A stretch of 50,418 bases of DNA. Origin: a bacterium. Lineage in GTDB: Bacteria; Patescibacteriota; Minisyncoccia; Phycocordibacterales; UBA9973. The notes under the pieces are model-generated. The model searched no databases. It had not been told where the DNA came from and was given only the letters and a program-made list of their open reading frames with translations. Below are positions 15,725 to 36,572 of the stretch, piece after piece (positions within the stretch are counted from its first letter, which is position 1; every line of letters starts with the position of its first letter). The DNA lies in contig JBBCGN010000006.1 of NCBI GenBank assembly GCA_037200905.1, forward strand, positions 1-50,418. The letters are read 5' to 3'. A program made the position numbers and the translations under genes.

Positions 15725-15755
15725 AGCCGATCAGAATATTCTGATCGGCTTTTTT
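15725..15755 (+). terminator. Intrinsic terminator, perfect 26-bp palindrome
   Basis: AGCCGATCAGAATATTCTGATCGGCT plus T-run. Confidence 0.75.
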
Positions 15756-17293: not shown

Positions 17294-17436
17294 CATGATT
17301 GCTGTCTGCAGTGAACCATCCCACAAGGGATGGTTTTTTATTTTGTCCTGAGATAAGCATTTATTACCTGACCGGTCAGAATATTCTGGCCGGTTTTTGA
17401 TTTTTCCGGAAAAAATGCTATTATCATCATGTTTTT

Positions 17437-17512
17437 GGCCCTTATCGTCTAACGGTTAGGACACCGCCTTCTCAAGGCAGTAATCAGAGTTCGATTCTCT
17501 GTAGGGTCACCA
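17437..17512 (+). tRNA. tRNA-Glu(CTC)
   Basis: Cloverleaf, anticodon loop TT-CTC-AA, GTTCGATTC T-arm, encoded CCA. One extra T in the acceptor 5' strand. Confidence 0.92.
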
Positions 17513-17599
17513 TTTAGAGAGCGCTCGAGAAGCGTCAAGATAATATTCAGTAAGTCTGTATACTACGAATTTAACTGAAAAGAGATATAATTTGAAGAT

Positions 17600-18315
17600 A
17601 TGGAAAAATCACCCGAAGAGACAAAAAGGATTGAGGCCTCGATGGAATTTGTCGAAAAATACTACACCGACGACATTGTCGAGAGAGCGAGTCCTGAAAG
17701 CGTGTGGGCAGCGCAGTGGGCGACCTATGTAGACGAAAATCCGTGCTTGATGTGGCATGCGGCCCGCAATTCTATGATGACGCATTGGCATTTGCTCAAA
17801 TTCCGAAAAAGTTCGTAGGGGTAGACCTCAATGAGGCCAACATTAAATTTTTAAAAACCTCCTTACACCCCAATATCATTAAAGCCAAGACAGAGCTTGA
17901 AAGAAACGGGTCGCAAGTTGAATTGCTTGTACAAGACATTACGGCAAGGAAGCCTGAATTCGATAGACAGTTCGACTCGGTATTCGCATCAGGAATCATC
18001 GGCAATTTTGGCATTGCAGAAACTAAAGCAGTCTTACAAAACATCAATTCCTATCTCGCTCTTGGAGGCCAATTCGTCATGGTGAGTTGGGGAGATGATT
18101 ATCTGAGCAAAGAAAAGAGTGAGGAAAGAGAGGCATCTGGATGGTATCAAAAGCAAGAATTGAAGCCGGAAGATTATGCTCGCTTAATCAGCGAGGCCGG
18201 CTTTACAATAGAAAAGCAAGAAGTGCATGAGGTCGCGGATCCTAAAGAGTATGAATGGGGCTGCATATTCGGCTTTATAGCGAGGAAAACCGTAGATAAA
18301 GAATCTTCAAACTAA
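17600..18315 (+). CDS. Class I SAM-dependent methyltransferase, frameshifted
   Basis: SVLDVACG, VGVDLN, QDIT, FDSVFASG, LALGGQF. Confidence 0.85.
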
Positions 18316-20346: not shown

Positions 20347-20454
20347 TCGATGCACGACAAGGGTCGGAATGATATACTGGAAAGGCACTAATTAATATTT
20401 CTATTAAAAAAGCGTCCTTATAACAAGGACGCTGGTTTTTGGATTTTTAGACAG

Positions 20455-33357: not shown

Positions 33358-33559
33358 TGGCCGCACCAAAACCCGGAACTAGTTCCGGGTTTTTATTTTT
33401 GGACTAATCATCGAAGGAAGCCGCTATATATTGACAAATAACATAAACATGGCAAAATGGCTATGAAAAAAATTATCTTTGATCTTCAAAATCAACCTTG
33501 TTGAATTGCATGTTGACTTTTGTATATTAAAATGCACAATAAAGCGAAACTTATTTACA

Positions 33560-33910
33560 ATGAAAACAGAAAAAATACTTGAAGGTGCAATTCACCTTGA
33601 CAAGCTCATGGGCATTCAGGTTGCCGTCGTTCACCATCTAGGTACTGATGCGTTCAGCAGACCCCAAACAGGTTGCACGTATTATCAAGTCATCAATGAA
33701 TACGACCTTGGTAATTACGACGACATTGAAGATGGTGCGGAAGTGACCTTCAAAGTTGAAGAGCCGGGGATAAGCATCTACCGCTTCGGGGTCACGCAGA
33801 CTCGCTCTCAGTGCACCATTTTGACAATCAAGCGCAAAGGACAAATCATTGAAACTACCGACTACAGGTATGAAAAAGAGTACAGTAAACAAAAATCCGT
33901 GATTGTCTGA
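33560..33910 (+). CDS. Hypothetical protein (cassette gene)
   Basis: Intact ORF from MKTEKILEG, with TTGACT promoter and terminator. Confidence 0.6.
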   Translation: MKTEKILEGAIHLDKLMGIQVAVVHHLGTDAFSRPQTGCTYYQVINEYDLGNYDDIEDGAEVTFKVEEPGISIYRFGVTQTRSQCTILTIKRKGQIIETTDYRYEKEYSKQKSVIV

Positions 33911-34070
33911 TATTTATTAGTTTTTCAAAGCCGAACCGAAAGGACGGCTTTTTATTTTGTGAGCCTATGACCAGTAGAGACTTCTGGTCCCTTGCCCTAT
34001 AAAGCTATGCAAGACTTTGTCAGTGTATTATTTCGACCCTTCTCGGCTGCTCGGACCAGCTCTCTCATTG

Positions 34071-34149
34071 GTGAGCCTAGTGGTGCGGAATTGGAACTGG
34101 ATAGTAGGGGAAGAATATAAGGGGATTTACGATTACATTATACTATTGA
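34071..34149 (+). repeat. tRNA-Glu-linked att-like repeat (copy F)
   Basis: GTGAGCCTAGTGGTGCGGAATTGGAACTGGATAGTAGGG..AATATAAGGGGATTT...TATTGA. Confidence 0.8.
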
Positions 34150-34212
34150 CTTTTAATATATAATGTGATATTGTATATTTGAAATAAGCTTTTAAAACTA
34201 AAAATCAATAAA

Positions 34213-34554
34213 ATGGATAAAACAGATTTCGAATCAGAGAACTGGTTCATTACCCGCTACGATAAACATCACGGTGTAAGAATTAGTAAACGGGAAGATG
34301 ACAAAGTCATTTATGACATTGAATGCATGATAAAATACGGAATGTACGGTGTCACACCAACGAATGATACTCCAAAGATAGTACACGAATTACTATCAAT
34401 AACCGGAGTAAATCTTGTTGCTTATGATCCTCGTCCAGAGAAAGCCTGTGTTCGATTCATCAACGTTAACTCTTATTACAGAGAGAATGAGGTTCTCAAC
34501 CCTGCTAAGTTTATTTTGTCGAAATACAAAAACAGAGAACCCGTTCTTTATTGA
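34213..34554 (+). CDS. Hypothetical protein (cassette gene)
   Basis: Intact 113-aa AT-rich ORF after copy F and its promoter. Confidence 0.65.
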   Translation: MDKTDFESENWFITRYDKHHGVRISKREDDKVIYDIECMIKYGMYGVTPTNDTPKIVHELLSITGVNLVAYDPRPEKACVRFINVNSYYRENEVLNPAKFILSKYKNREPVLY

Positions 34555-34704
34555 TTAAGAATTTATAAATCCTTTGACCATAATGGTTGAAGGATTTTTT
34601 CTTATAGTAGCTCGAACCTTCTCGTACACCCGGTAAAGTTCGAATAAATTATTGACATAACTACAAAGTATGTTATACTGTACTTAAATTTAAAATAAAC
34701 AACA

Positions 34705-34995
34705 ATGCATCAAATCATTATTGTAGGCGCTGTAATCCTTGTAGGAATTCTCGCCATTTTGTTCTTCATGGTTTGGCTTCTATGGTTCAGAAGCTCTAAA
34801 GACTCTGTTTGGCCACAAATCACCAAATGTAATATCTGTGACAAGCAGGTATACGTGTGGCAGCTGCACGAACGCAGGAATATGGATATATCCATTTCAG
34901 GAGATATATTTCTGGGCAATATTTCCGGCTCAGCGATTGTTCATAAAAAATGTGAAGGTAGTCCGAAATCCAAAGTCACTGTAAACAGAGGTTAA
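34705..34995 (+). CDS. Small membrane-anchored protein with CxxC...HxxC motif
   Basis: N-terminal TM, KCNICDK, HKKCEG. Confidence 0.6.
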   Translation: MHQIIIVGAVILVGILAILFFMVWLLWFRSSKDSVWPQITKCNICDKQVYVWQLHERRNMDISISGDIFLGNISGSAIVHKKCEGSPKSKVTVNRG

Positions 34996-35106
34996 AAAAA
35001 CATCCGATGTCCGCTATATGTATATGGCGGACATTTTTTATTTGCTTCAATTATATCTCTTTTTCCAGATCTCGTAGCTATGCAAGCTTACCGAATTATT
35101 GCCTCA

Positions 35107-35154
35107 ACGCTACTCGAGCGCTCTCTAAAAGGTGAGGATTCAGCAGGTAGAACC
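35107..35154 (+). repeat. Copy of the tRNA-Glu(CTC) downstream flank plus a decayed tRNA 3' end
   Basis: 35107-35135 matches the reverse complement of 17507-17535 at 27/29 nt. Confidence 0.75.
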
Positions 35155-35239
35155 TTTCGATTCGTTGCCCTGCAAGGTTATTTCTAATAATTAGCGACTA
35201 ACATCCCGACCCTTCTCGTGAGTGTAAATTTTTGCTAGC

Positions 35240-35809
35240 TTAACAAAATTATTTCCTCGGCAATATTTTGAAAATTCATATTACTTGTATCAAAAATCGT
35301 ATGGGGTATAGGAATAATTTTCAGTAATTCGAGTAACTCGTCCTGTTGGCTAGAATAGTATCTAACGATTTCCTCTTGAGTATTTCCTTTTGTATTAACA
35401 TAATTATTCCACTCGTCATCTCTATGGGATTGAGCCAGAGAATTCTTTCTTCAAGTTTATTATTTGGTATCTCTAGGAAACAAATCTGTGCACTATTTTC
35501 CAATAACAAAGAAGCGCTTTCTGTGAAATCTTCGATATGTGCTCTAGTGCGCCAGATATGAGTAAGATAGAGACGGTCAAAAATAAGTATGCCTTTGCTC
35601 GAAGAAAGATATCTATTTAAAAGACCTGTAATATGGTCATTTGCTGTTACTGGATCAGTATTTTGAAGCAATGGCATTAGAGTTTCTTCCTCGCCGATAA
35701 ATGTGTAATCAAGTCCTCTTCGAGTGAGTATCTTTTCTAGTTCATTCTTCACGGAAGTTTTACCGCTAGTGGCGATGCCCTCAAGCATGATAATGCTAGT
35801 TTTCTTCAT
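35240..35809 (-). CDS. Thymidylate-kinase-like P-loop kinase, 3' end frameshifted
   Basis: IIMLEGIATSGKTS, LIFDR, ERIL. Confidence 0.65.
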
Positions 35810-35835
35810 AATATTCTAAAATAAAATCTTGTAAT

Positions 35836-36443
35836 TCAGTCGGGGAAGAGGACTATTCCTTTAAGATTTTCATGCGGTTCCCTTGTAACGTATGACTCAT
35901 CGTGAGATCCCCAAAGAACAGCAACTGTCGGTATTTTAGCACGGTCGGCTTCTCGAATATCGCCCAGCGTGTCGGTAACAAATAGCATGTCTTCTTTTTT
36001 TATCTGATACTTTTCTTCAATCATGTTAAATTTCTCAACTTTATTTCTTGAAATTTCTGCCGAGGCTACCAAATCAAACATATCTCGTATACCTGCTTTT
36101 TCCAAAAGCGGTAGTAGATTTCGCTCCATAGCAGAAGAATTGATGGTCAAAATGTAATCCTTTGCTTGAGGAATTTTAGTAATTCAAACATTCCGTCATA
36201 CATTCCGACTTCTAATTTTTGTTGTGAGTATGCCAGTTTTCTTGATTCTTTTTCTTCCTCTGTCCGAATAACGGCAGTATTGTTGAGTTTGAACTTCCGT
36301 ATTTCTTCATGGAAGTTCCCGGCCAATAACTCTTTGTGATGGCTTCTTGTCAGATAAGGATAATCTTCTAGAAAAGCATTCTCAGCAATTGTTACAGAGT
36401 CAAAGAGAACCCCGTCCATATCGAAGATGATCAATTTTTTCAT
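35836..36443 (-). CDS. HAD-superfamily hydrolase, frameshifted
   Basis: IIFDMDGVLFDS, LTINS, FVTDTLGDI, AVLWG. Confidence 0.85.
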
Positions 36444-36497
36444 ATATCTGATTATATCAGAAGAGTCTATTTCTGAGTTTCTCGTGCGCGCTGCTGT

Positions 36498-36572
36498 TGG
36501 TGACCCTACAGGGAATCGAACCCTGATTACCGCCTTGAAAAGGCGATGTCCTAACCGTTAGACGATAGGGCC
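36498..36572 (-). tRNA. tRNA-Glu(TTC)
   Basis: Cloverleaf, anticodon loop TT-TTC-AA, encoded CCA. Nearly identical to 17437..17512. Confidence 0.95.

Follow-up and report, generated by a model that had tools for sequence, protein, structure and literature searches.

The window analyzed here, a 50,418-nucleotide (nt) stretch of contig JBBCGN010000006.1 (assembly GCA_037200905.1; contig C6 in our numbering), comes from a 677-kb, 72%-complete genome of the Patescibacteria (Paceibacteria-type). It carries two tRNA-Glu genes, tRNA-Glu(CTC) and tRNA-Glu(TTC), which are mutually inverted, lie 19 kb apart and have 68 of 80 nt in common. Low-G+C islands flank both genes (13.9-20.4 kb, the CTC island; 33.4-36.5 kb, the TTC island), with a G+C content of 0.32-0.46 versus 0.5-0.63 in the rest of the window; at the edge of the TTC island, near 33.4 kb, the value drops from about 0.59 to about 0.40. 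A reading of the DNA made without database searches (the sequence-only reading) had placed a HAD gene and a kinase gene downstream of the minus-strand tRNA-Glu(TTC) and two orphan genes further on. The HAD gene and the P-loop kinase-like gene were confirmed, and each carries a frameshift; the orphans are open reading frames (ORFs) of 113 amino acids (aa; 34213-34554) and 96 aa (34705-34995). Repeats, half-sites and a spacer with a counterpart in the CTC island accompany these genes. We consider the TTC island to be probably a decayed island of scars from small integrative elements that were inserted at tRNA-Glu(TTC) by a large serine recombinase (LSR).

Site parts shared by the two tRNA-Glu islands

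The sequence-only reading had proposed that the TTC island shares its arms with the island at the other tRNA-Glu gene. An ungapped dot-plot comparison of the two regions (14-20.4 kb and 33.4-36.6 kb) yielded 11 segments with at least 20 identical positions in 24, compared with 0.27 in shuffled controls, which places the matches far above chance. All eight copies of the core GTGA[CGT]CCTA in the window fall within the two islands. The reported 27/29-nt match to the flank of tRNA-Glu(CTC) proved exact (35107-35135 against the reverse complement of 17507-17535) and, once gaps are allowed, becomes part of a 103-nt alignment (35033-35135 versus the reverse complement of 17507-17609; 85/109 identical) that scores 86, whereas shuffles averaged 16.9 and reached at most 26. 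This 103-nt paralogue corresponds to the whole spacer from tRNA-Glu(CTC) to the start codon of a methyltransferase gene, and comprises the core, a flank-side half-site (B') and a leader. The leader of the HAD gene is likewise similar to the methyltransferase leader (21/26). Four modules of the two islands share one layout, in which a B' leads into a gene that points the same way as the tRNA; at 35033 this gene is lost, and the other three are the methyltransferase, an AAA_33 kinase and the HAD gene.

The shorter motifs that had been singled out fared unevenly. TTCTCG is indeed present at 34040, 34619, 35213 and 36479, but the hexamer alone is uninformative because it occurs 80 times in the window; it is the surrounding 12-mer, CGA[AC]CCTT[CG]TCG, that is significant: of five copies in the genome, four lie in the window (0.04 expected), every one of them within the islands. 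Both copies of AGCTATGCAAG were found (34003 and 35076), the second inside the 103-nt paralogue, but the bare 11-mer pair is near chance. The half-site reported at 33959 is an exact core 9-mer, about 0.02-0.07 of which are expected by chance in the TTC island, and nothing beyond it resembles either the repeat or a tRNA; its reading as a full, diverged repeat found no support.

The 3'-terminal 21 nt of tRNA-Glu(TTC) (TTCGATTCCCTGTAGGGTCAC) form the B half of the target site, and the LSR genes of relatives end inside them. Reading outward from the core, the tRNA has CAC, 21 nt and then TTCGA (GTTCGATTC). The corresponding motif of the repeat (GTTCCAATTC) stands 26 nt from the core, that is, 5 bp further out than in the tRNA: the distance from TTCCAATTC to CAC is 26 nt in copies B, C, D and F, and that from TTCGATTC to CAC is 21 nt in both tRNAs. 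In LI integrase and others, the zinc-ribbon motif lies 5 bp further out in attP half-sites than in attB (PMC3783163); the window thus shows the displacement of the distal motif on the element side relative to the host side that is typical of LSR sites. At another locus (L097; G109:C1:95757), the same flank half-site adjoins a third tRNA-like arm (GTGACCCTATTGTATGGCTTTCAGAAC) that is unrelated to the others, and the GAAC motif of this arm likewise stands 5 bp further out.

On the flank side, CGAGAA stands exactly 15 nt from CAC in both tRNAs, in copy E and in the 35107-35135 copy. The pattern TAGGGTCAC-N15-CGAGAA was found in 7 of 150 other genomes of the genus and not once in the reversed control. 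Such B' half-sites follow tRNA-Glu(TTC) in G347 and G327, tRNA-Glu(CTC) in G230, G386 and G704, and element arms in G233 and G109 (G numbers denote genomes), with the consensus CACC-N7-GCTAGCACGAGAA. From these alignments we infer a 42-bp (21+21-bp) attB target centred on CAC/C, composed of a tRNA half and a flank half ending in CGAGAA; TTCTCG would then be the outer motif of the flank half-site. The two halves, TTCGA-N16/N15-CGAGAA, are of equal length about CAC/C, and their outer motifs are only loosely inverted (TTCGAT versus TTCTCG). Both tRNA-Glu genes carry this predicted site, which would allow one integrase family to use either. At tRNA-Glu(TTC), the B' half-site at 36479-36499 and the tRNA end apparently make up an unoccupied 42-bp attB.

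In loci L096-L103, the flank half-site holds a perfect 10-bp palindrome (GTGCTAGCAC); immediately behind tRNA-Glu genes, the half-site is conserved across genomes of 28% to 42% G+C. Conservation of an unoccupied target flank may reflect a host function or delivery by elements.

The sequence-only reading listed one full repeat copy, F, in the TTC island. When nhmmer was run with a model of 17 repeat copies that left F out, it retrieved six copies in the genome, all in the window, including F at E=2e-9, which confirms F as a genuine member. F is most similar to copy A of the CTC locus, with 54 identical positions; resemblance among the copies therefore does not follow the locus. The junction of TTTTTCTATCA with GTGA occurs twice, at 96% identity. 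Folded as single strands, the six arms were no more stable than shuffled sequences (z -1.13 to +1.31) and are therefore not attC-like.

Copy F is preceded by an arm (34021-34070) that matches the reverse complement of 20355-20379 at 21/25 positions and the flank of tRNA-Glu(CTC) at 23/28; its inner motif, GCTCT[CA]T[CA]A..GTGA, occurs three times in the genome, always within the two islands. Judged by these matches, copy F and its B'-like arm would together represent an attR-like scar. A second composite lies nearer the tRNA, where the CTC-type spacer 35033-35135 is joined at the GTGA core to a weakly tRNA-like arm (35136-35180). The sequence-only reading had called this arm a decayed tRNA end. 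In a fixed register, 10 of the 19 positions after GTGA agree with the tRNA (p ~0.006), but the resemblance is marginal, with p ~0.03-0.055 in an anchored gapped alignment, and Rfam called no tRNA there. The alternative that 35136-35205 is a P arm, of either the G185 type or the repeat family of the window, found no support, as it has no similarity to P arms. The 22-nt block that follows (35199-35220) has its match at 20353-20374, the far end of the CTC island.

Serine integrases and complete elements in relatives

The genome encodes one tyrosine recombinase (PF00589, C1:90.6 kb) and one LSR, both on contig C1. No LSR gene was found in the window, and no cognate integrase elsewhere in the 72%-complete genome: the sole LSR (C1:275312-276718) is 25% identical to the G085 enzyme described below and occupies a long branch in the tree. 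This gene lies 1.7 kb from tRNA-Gln(CTG) and does not read into a tRNA.

LSR genes are present in 108 of 151 genomes of the genus. In G185, the LSR gene runs antisense into the 3' end of tRNA-Glu(TTC), and its surroundings (tRNA-Val ... tRNA-Glu, tRNA-Ser) are syntenic with the window. With this enzyme as query, 22 homologues were recovered, and in those whose gene end and tRNA are both on the contig, the final ~11 codons are tRNA antisense. The gene reads in this manner into tRNA-Glu(TTC) in G185, G380, G085, G233 and G363, into tRNA-Glu(CTC) in G115, G373 and G361, and into tRNA-Ala(TGC) (five loci), tRNA-Leu or tRNA-Asn at loci L071-L077 and L080. The C-termini of the tRNA-Glu-targeting enzymes, such as .../VTL[SPQL]G[IV]EP, are read from the tRNA antisense; those at the tRNA-Ala, tRNA-Leu and tRNA-Asn loci, for example ...GLEPATPSLQMRCSTR, are read off the tRNA as well. 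The LSR family appears to have switched tRNA targets several times.

In the maximum-likelihood tree, G185 and G380 (TTC) and G115, G373 and G361 (CTC) formed one clade with 100/100 support and short branches. As this clade mixes both anticodons, one integrase clade uses both isoacceptor genes. The proposal of the sequence-only reading that one recombinase family services the two isoacceptors is therefore well supported, by the mixed clade and by the presence of the repeat and the half-site at both genes; the support comes from relatives and not from this genome. The earlier proposal named no enzyme type; the relatives' genes predict a serine integrase, not a tyrosine integrase.

A degenerate repeat pattern was found in three species genomes and ten metagenome contigs (13 foreign loci, L048-L060). 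In all, the repeat family is present in 15 foreign loci, and every tRNA-bearing one has a tRNA-Glu adjoining the array: tRNA-Glu(CTC) precedes the repeat in L049, L052, L058 and L060, and tRNA-Glu(TTC) in L055, L056, L089 and L090 (the long L089 and L090 stretches also hold unrelated syntenic tRNA genes). These arrays have 2-4 repeat copies after tRNA-Glu. In L048-L060 we found neither an LSR nor shared cargo, and no long frame upstream of the repeat in any of the 13. A 26-nt DNA pattern of the repeat (2 mismatches) had no match outside this genome among 400 genomes of the family, a repeat peptide profile returned only noise from 300 genomes of the order, and scans of viral contigs with the repeat pattern gave no match. 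None of 40 relatives was close enough in DNA to reveal an empty or differently filled site.

Elements that join integrase and arm were found in G085 and G233. Both have an LSR at tRNA-Glu(TTC), with the Resolvase, Recombinase and Zn_ribbon_recom domains all present, and co-oriented arms of the window family at a distance of 4.7-7 kb (E=9e-8 to 1e-6). One of the G233 arms is fused to TTTCTCGTGCTAGCACTTGATG, the flank native to the tRNA, which is a B' with TTCTCG-N15. The elements in G085 and G233 carry cargo genes and a rolling-circle Rep (REP_ORF2-G2P) besides the LSR, and intact elements in relatives measure about 4.7-7.5 kb. At tRNA-Glu(TTC), complete elements span 12710-17488 of L089 (reverse-complemented) and 11971-18389 of L090, with the order arm, cargo, Rep, LSR. 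The cargo is a DUF3800 gene in L089 and a putative methylase and HNH-like pair in L090; the Rep is a 272-aa rolling-circle protein (REP_ORF2-G2P, E=1e-21). Both look like integrating rolling-circle replicons.

The reading frame of the integrase passes through GTG ACC CTA, and the far arm starts with the same nine bases. With these bases common to frame and arm, the predicted product of the excised circle is ...SSL-VTL-IIRNWNQLFNQISGF..., whose counterpart in the window is VTLTVLNWNFIVGNM.... Two far-end tails could be located in the G185 clade (L047:7715-7850 in G185; L092:47-180 in G361). Both have 44 codons and the motif F[VI][DE]FF..L[DE].IIS; as they are equal in length and share this motif despite DNA divergence, the tails are coding. 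These features constitute good evidence that the free form of the integrase would have a longer C-terminus, which would be lost on insertion. The repeat itself is accordingly predicted to combine two parts of an LSR gene that spans its own attP, namely the element half-site and the orphaned tail.

Contents of the TTC island

The features of the island are listed in Table 1. The units have a TTGAC(T/A)...TATAAT-like promoter each. The 113-aa protein of the cassette beside F matched only itself among 5.8 billion proteins, and the 96-aa ORF has one transmembrane helix and Cys pairs and no Pfam match. In F itself, a 4-nt insertion disrupts the conserved tail frame.

Table 1. Features of the TTC island in the order of the forward strand, with the two tRNA-Glu genes
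Feature	Position	Strand	Details
Outermost cassette	33431-33958	+	promoters, 116-aa orphan ORF (33560-33910), terminator
Core-only remnant GTGAGCCTA	33959-33967	+	exact 9-mer, directly after the T-run of the terminator
B'-like left arm of copy F	34021-34070	+	outer block with CGACCCTTCTCG, inner GCTCTCTCATTG
Copy F: putative P-type (element-side) half-site and orphaned integrase tail	34071-34136	+	nhmmer E=2e-9
Cassette led by copy F	34146-34597	+	promoter TTGACT-17-TATTGT, 113-aa orphan ORF (34213-34554), terminator
Third 12-mer copy (CGAACCTTCTCG)	34613-34624	+	between the two orphan cassettes
Self-contained cassette	34652-35035	+	promoter (11/12 to consensus), 96-aa orphan ORF (34705-34995), terminator
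CTC-type spacer paralogue	35033-35135	+	85/109 to reverse complement of 17507-17609; includes second AGCTATGCAAG
GTGA core, then weakly tRNA-like arm	35132-35180	+	B-type spacing, GAACC ends at nt 23
Orphan outer B'-type block with 12-mer CGACCCTTCTCG	35199-35220	+	just past kinase stop; 19/22 to 20353-20374
P-loop (TSGKT) kinase-like gene	35247-35809	-	frameshift near 35438; without Pfam family
HAD-family hydrolase gene	35836-36443	-	frameshift near 36150; Pfam HAD_2/Hydrolase matches divided between two ORFs that differ in frame
B' half-site of tRNA-Glu(TTC)	36479-36499	-	TTCTCG, 15 nt, core; 22/27 to flank of copy E
tRNA-Glu(TTC)	36498-36572	-	ARAGORN; Rfam tRNA, 63 bits
tRNA-Glu(CTC)	17437-17512	+	ARAGORN

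The kinase-like gene belongs to an uncharacterised family of P-loop proteins, typically of about 190 aa, with the motifs EGI.TSGKT and DRLY.THI (123 representative clusters, no Pfam model); a weak homologue was found in only 1 of 150 genus genomes. By tblastn, residues 3-120 lie in one frame and 123-185 in another. We rejected the possibility that the kinase-like genes of the two islands are paralogues (BLASTP E=0.57). An intact paralogue of the HAD gene, 30-41% identical, lies at C1:43459-43977. Single frameshifts appear to split all three genes that follow a B' in the direction of a tRNA-Glu, namely the methyltransferase gene (17600-18315), the kinase-like gene and the HAD gene.

On the 5' side of tRNA-Glu(CTC), a mirror-image array is present. 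A terminator-like hairpin, CCG(A/G)TCAGAATATTCTG(A/G)(T/C)CGG, occurs directly upstream of this tRNA (17372-17398) and again at 15727-15753, the two copies being 85% identical.

Origin of the island

The probable origin in LSR-mediated insertion can be laid out as follows. The LSR gene would span its own attachment site. As in relatives, the inserted gene would finish antisense within the 3' tip of the tRNA, and a tRNA-like arm at the opposite end of the element would additionally encode the C-terminal tail of the free integrase. What remains at the TTC locus would be an attR-type scar (copy F with its B'-like arm), followed by two orphan cassettes with their own promoters, a CTC-type flank joined at GTGA to a tRNA-like arm, the B' and frameshifted HAD/kinase module, and an apparently empty attB. 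Stacking could proceed in two steps. An attP x attB deletion within a multi-site array would release a circle carrying attR (P/B'), and an attL x attR insertion, for which a directionality factor would be needed, would return such a circle. We infer that deletion and re-insertion provide the most economical account of scars behind an empty attB, and this route would yield the mixed junction types seen. The frameshifts in the HAD and kinase-like genes, the orphan cargo, the 78-82% identity of the shared parts and the lack of an integrase mark the island as a fossil and not a working system.

A number of observations weigh against this account. The genome has no integrase of the family, and the enzyme is thus assigned via relatives only. 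No integrase reads into any of the 13 foreign repeat copies (pattern search) or the six copies in the window. Among 445 word candidates for a long protein with the tail, none reached E<=10 in the 5.8-billion-protein set; a joined integrase and tail would be expected to go unseen if the gene is always split when integrated, and the joined form is still unobserved. The codon-position entropy of the repeat is weakly periodic (0.59/0.63/0.76). At the sites, the outer motif of the copy F arm stands 25 nt from the core, which is neither 15 nor 20, and the P' side, inside the LSR genes, has no clear mirror of the motif. The frameshifts could be indel errors of long-read assembly in AT-rich DNA instead of decay. 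To our knowledge, canonical LSRs do not recombine attP with attL or attR, and serial stacking is for that reason unexplained by the textbook LSR cycle.

It is conceivable, though unlikely, that both tRNA-Glu genes serve as paired landing sites in a serine-integrase equivalent of the integron. Each single-gene unit would then be bounded by a P-type arm and, on the other side, by a B'-type or terminator-type arm; attP x attB deletion would free unit circles, and attL x attR insertion would return them at either tRNA-Glu. If this were true, ordinary LSR chemistry would shuffle a shared cassette pool in genomes of ~0.7 Mb. That such a platform is active, with integrase-less mini-cassettes of one shared pool moved at either tRNA-Glu by a trans-acting LSR, is likewise doubtful. 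The units are uniform (0.5-0.8 kb, each with promoter and terminator), integrase-free arrays of 2-4 units recur after tRNA-Glu in foreign loci, the junction of TTTTTCTATCA with GTGA is found twice at 96% identity, and both tRNAs have an apparently empty attB with arrays beyond; moreover, B' is nearly identical at different tRNAs and in different species, as if it travelled with the units. However, no identical or near-identical cassette was found in two places, the cargo genes are orphans, this genome has no LSR of the family, and the island genes are frameshifted. The reactions needed, attR x attB or attP x attL, are also outside known LSR behaviour unless a directionality factor is supplied. 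The sequence-only reading had further suggested that cassettes may move between the two loci. The 103-nt CTC-type copy and the likeness of F to A are in keeping with this, but the parts common to both islands are only 78-82% identical, so that no recent exchange is visible, and we found no cargo common to both loci or to any fetched array; the islands give no sign of cassettes moving at present.

Internal rearrangement, in which a segmental duplication or inversion between the inverted tRNA-Glu genes (by homologous or site-specific recombination) brought a CTC-type flank into the TTC locus, we hold to be improbable. The inverted orientation and 68/80-nt likeness of the tRNAs would suit such an event, as would the 103-nt CTC-type spacer inside the TTC island, the similar leaders of the HAD and methyltransferase genes (21/26) and the mirror-image array 5' of tRNA-Glu(CTC). 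However, at 78% identity of the copies any such event must be old, and the homology ends exactly at the GTGA core, as expected of site-specific and not homologous exchange. Nor can rearrangement explain the same site parts at both tRNAs in unrelated genomes.

There is very little to be said for a tyrosine-recombinase or integron system, with the repeats as attC-like or core-type sites of a tyrosine integrase. Although tyrosine integrases classically insert at the 3' ends of tRNA genes (PMC4383910) and repeat-bounded single-gene units look like integron cassettes, the only tyrosine recombinase of the genome is on another contig (C1:90.6 kb), the identity between repeat and tRNA consists of a 9-nt core and a shifted motif with no long identical block, the arms lack a single-strand fold, every unit has its own promoter, and the LSR genes of relatives are physically joined to tRNA and repeat. 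Chance resemblance in AT-rich intergenic DNA, which would suffice for TTCTCG alone, the AGCTATGCAAG pair or the 33959 9-mer taken singly, is refuted by the shuffle controls (11 matches against 0.27; alignment score 86 against a maximum of 26), besides the E value of F (2e-9), the four 12-mers against 0.04 expected and the 15 foreign loci with an array beside tRNA-Glu wherever a tRNA is present, and retains next to no credibility.

Seen as LSR-derived, the island has counterparts and departures among known systems. The relatives' enzymes have the Resolvase, Recombinase and Zn_ribbon_recom architecture of the LSRs of Listeria A118 (LI), phiC31, Bxb1 and SPbeta (SprA), and, as in those elements, the sites are short, with only a small core common to element and host; in the element half-site, the distal motif is 5 bp further out, as for LI integrase (PMC3783163). 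Departures from known LSR elements are the target at the 3' tip of a tRNA gene, the ultra-small patescibacterial hosts, the position of attP, which would lie inside the last integrase codons, and the several scars behind one target. The Islander study of 2014 stated that serine integrases were not known to target tRNA genes (PMC4383910), and our search of the literature on serine recombinases at tRNA genes in Patescibacteria (candidate phyla radiation) found nothing describing such a system.

A further parallel is provided by the tycheposons and tRNA-linked genomic islands of Prochlorococcus. Tycheposons are small cargo elements with an integrase and a replication module that insert at tRNA genes; repeated insertion pushes older tycheposons outward, leaving partial tRNA-like repeats and degraded elements; their integrases are mostly of the tyrosine type, and 27 of 937 use a large serine recombinase (bioRxiv 10.1101/2020.12.28.424599). 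Like tycheposon islands, the system described here has an LSR and a REP_ORF2-G2P Rep in relatives, and the window has remnants and tRNA-like arms without an integrase. It differs in that the enzymes are serine integrases throughout, the repeat imitates the tRNA end with a shift instead of duplicating a tRNA fragment, single-gene units with their own promoters are left behind, and the host belongs to another phylum. As far as the account cited in PMC4383910 goes, Mx8 IntP (of a Myxococcus phage) and the SSV1-type archaeal integrases are tyrosine recombinases whose gene spans attP; there too, the crossover lies in the integrase gene, and insertion changes or removes the C-terminal end, with the other piece at the far end of the element. 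In contrast to these, the enzyme here would be a serine integrase, and ~20-44 codons would be swapped for ~11 tRNA-antisense codons. Chromosomal integrons and clusters of attC sites lacking integron integrases (CALINs) likewise present rows of single-gene units with a recurring site at a fixed platform, often with no recombinase nearby. Unlike them, the islands have no IntI, their sites do not fold, their units have their own promoters and stand in both orientations, and the platform is a tRNA gene. An IntI-type tyrosine integrase beside an attI is absent, the sole PF00589 gene of the genome being on another contig, and the cassettes are not the promoterless kind that depend on a platform promoter.

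The present analysis adds a second locus to the system, together with a 103-nt spacer common to both islands, a conserved flank half-site behind each tRNA-Glu gene and an integrase clade with mixed targets. What the window preserves is a fossil of the system and not a functioning copy. The genomes of Patescibacteria are tiny, and few ways in which they gain genes are recognised. Our findings point to a family of serine integrases that targets the very tip of tRNA genes, and suggest that a shared 42-bp site opens both isoacceptor genes to a single integrase clade; two hot spots per genome, fed by one pool of elements, would follow. The predicted site, with its tRNA half, flank half and element arm shifted by 5 bp, could in addition provide compact new integrase/att pairs.

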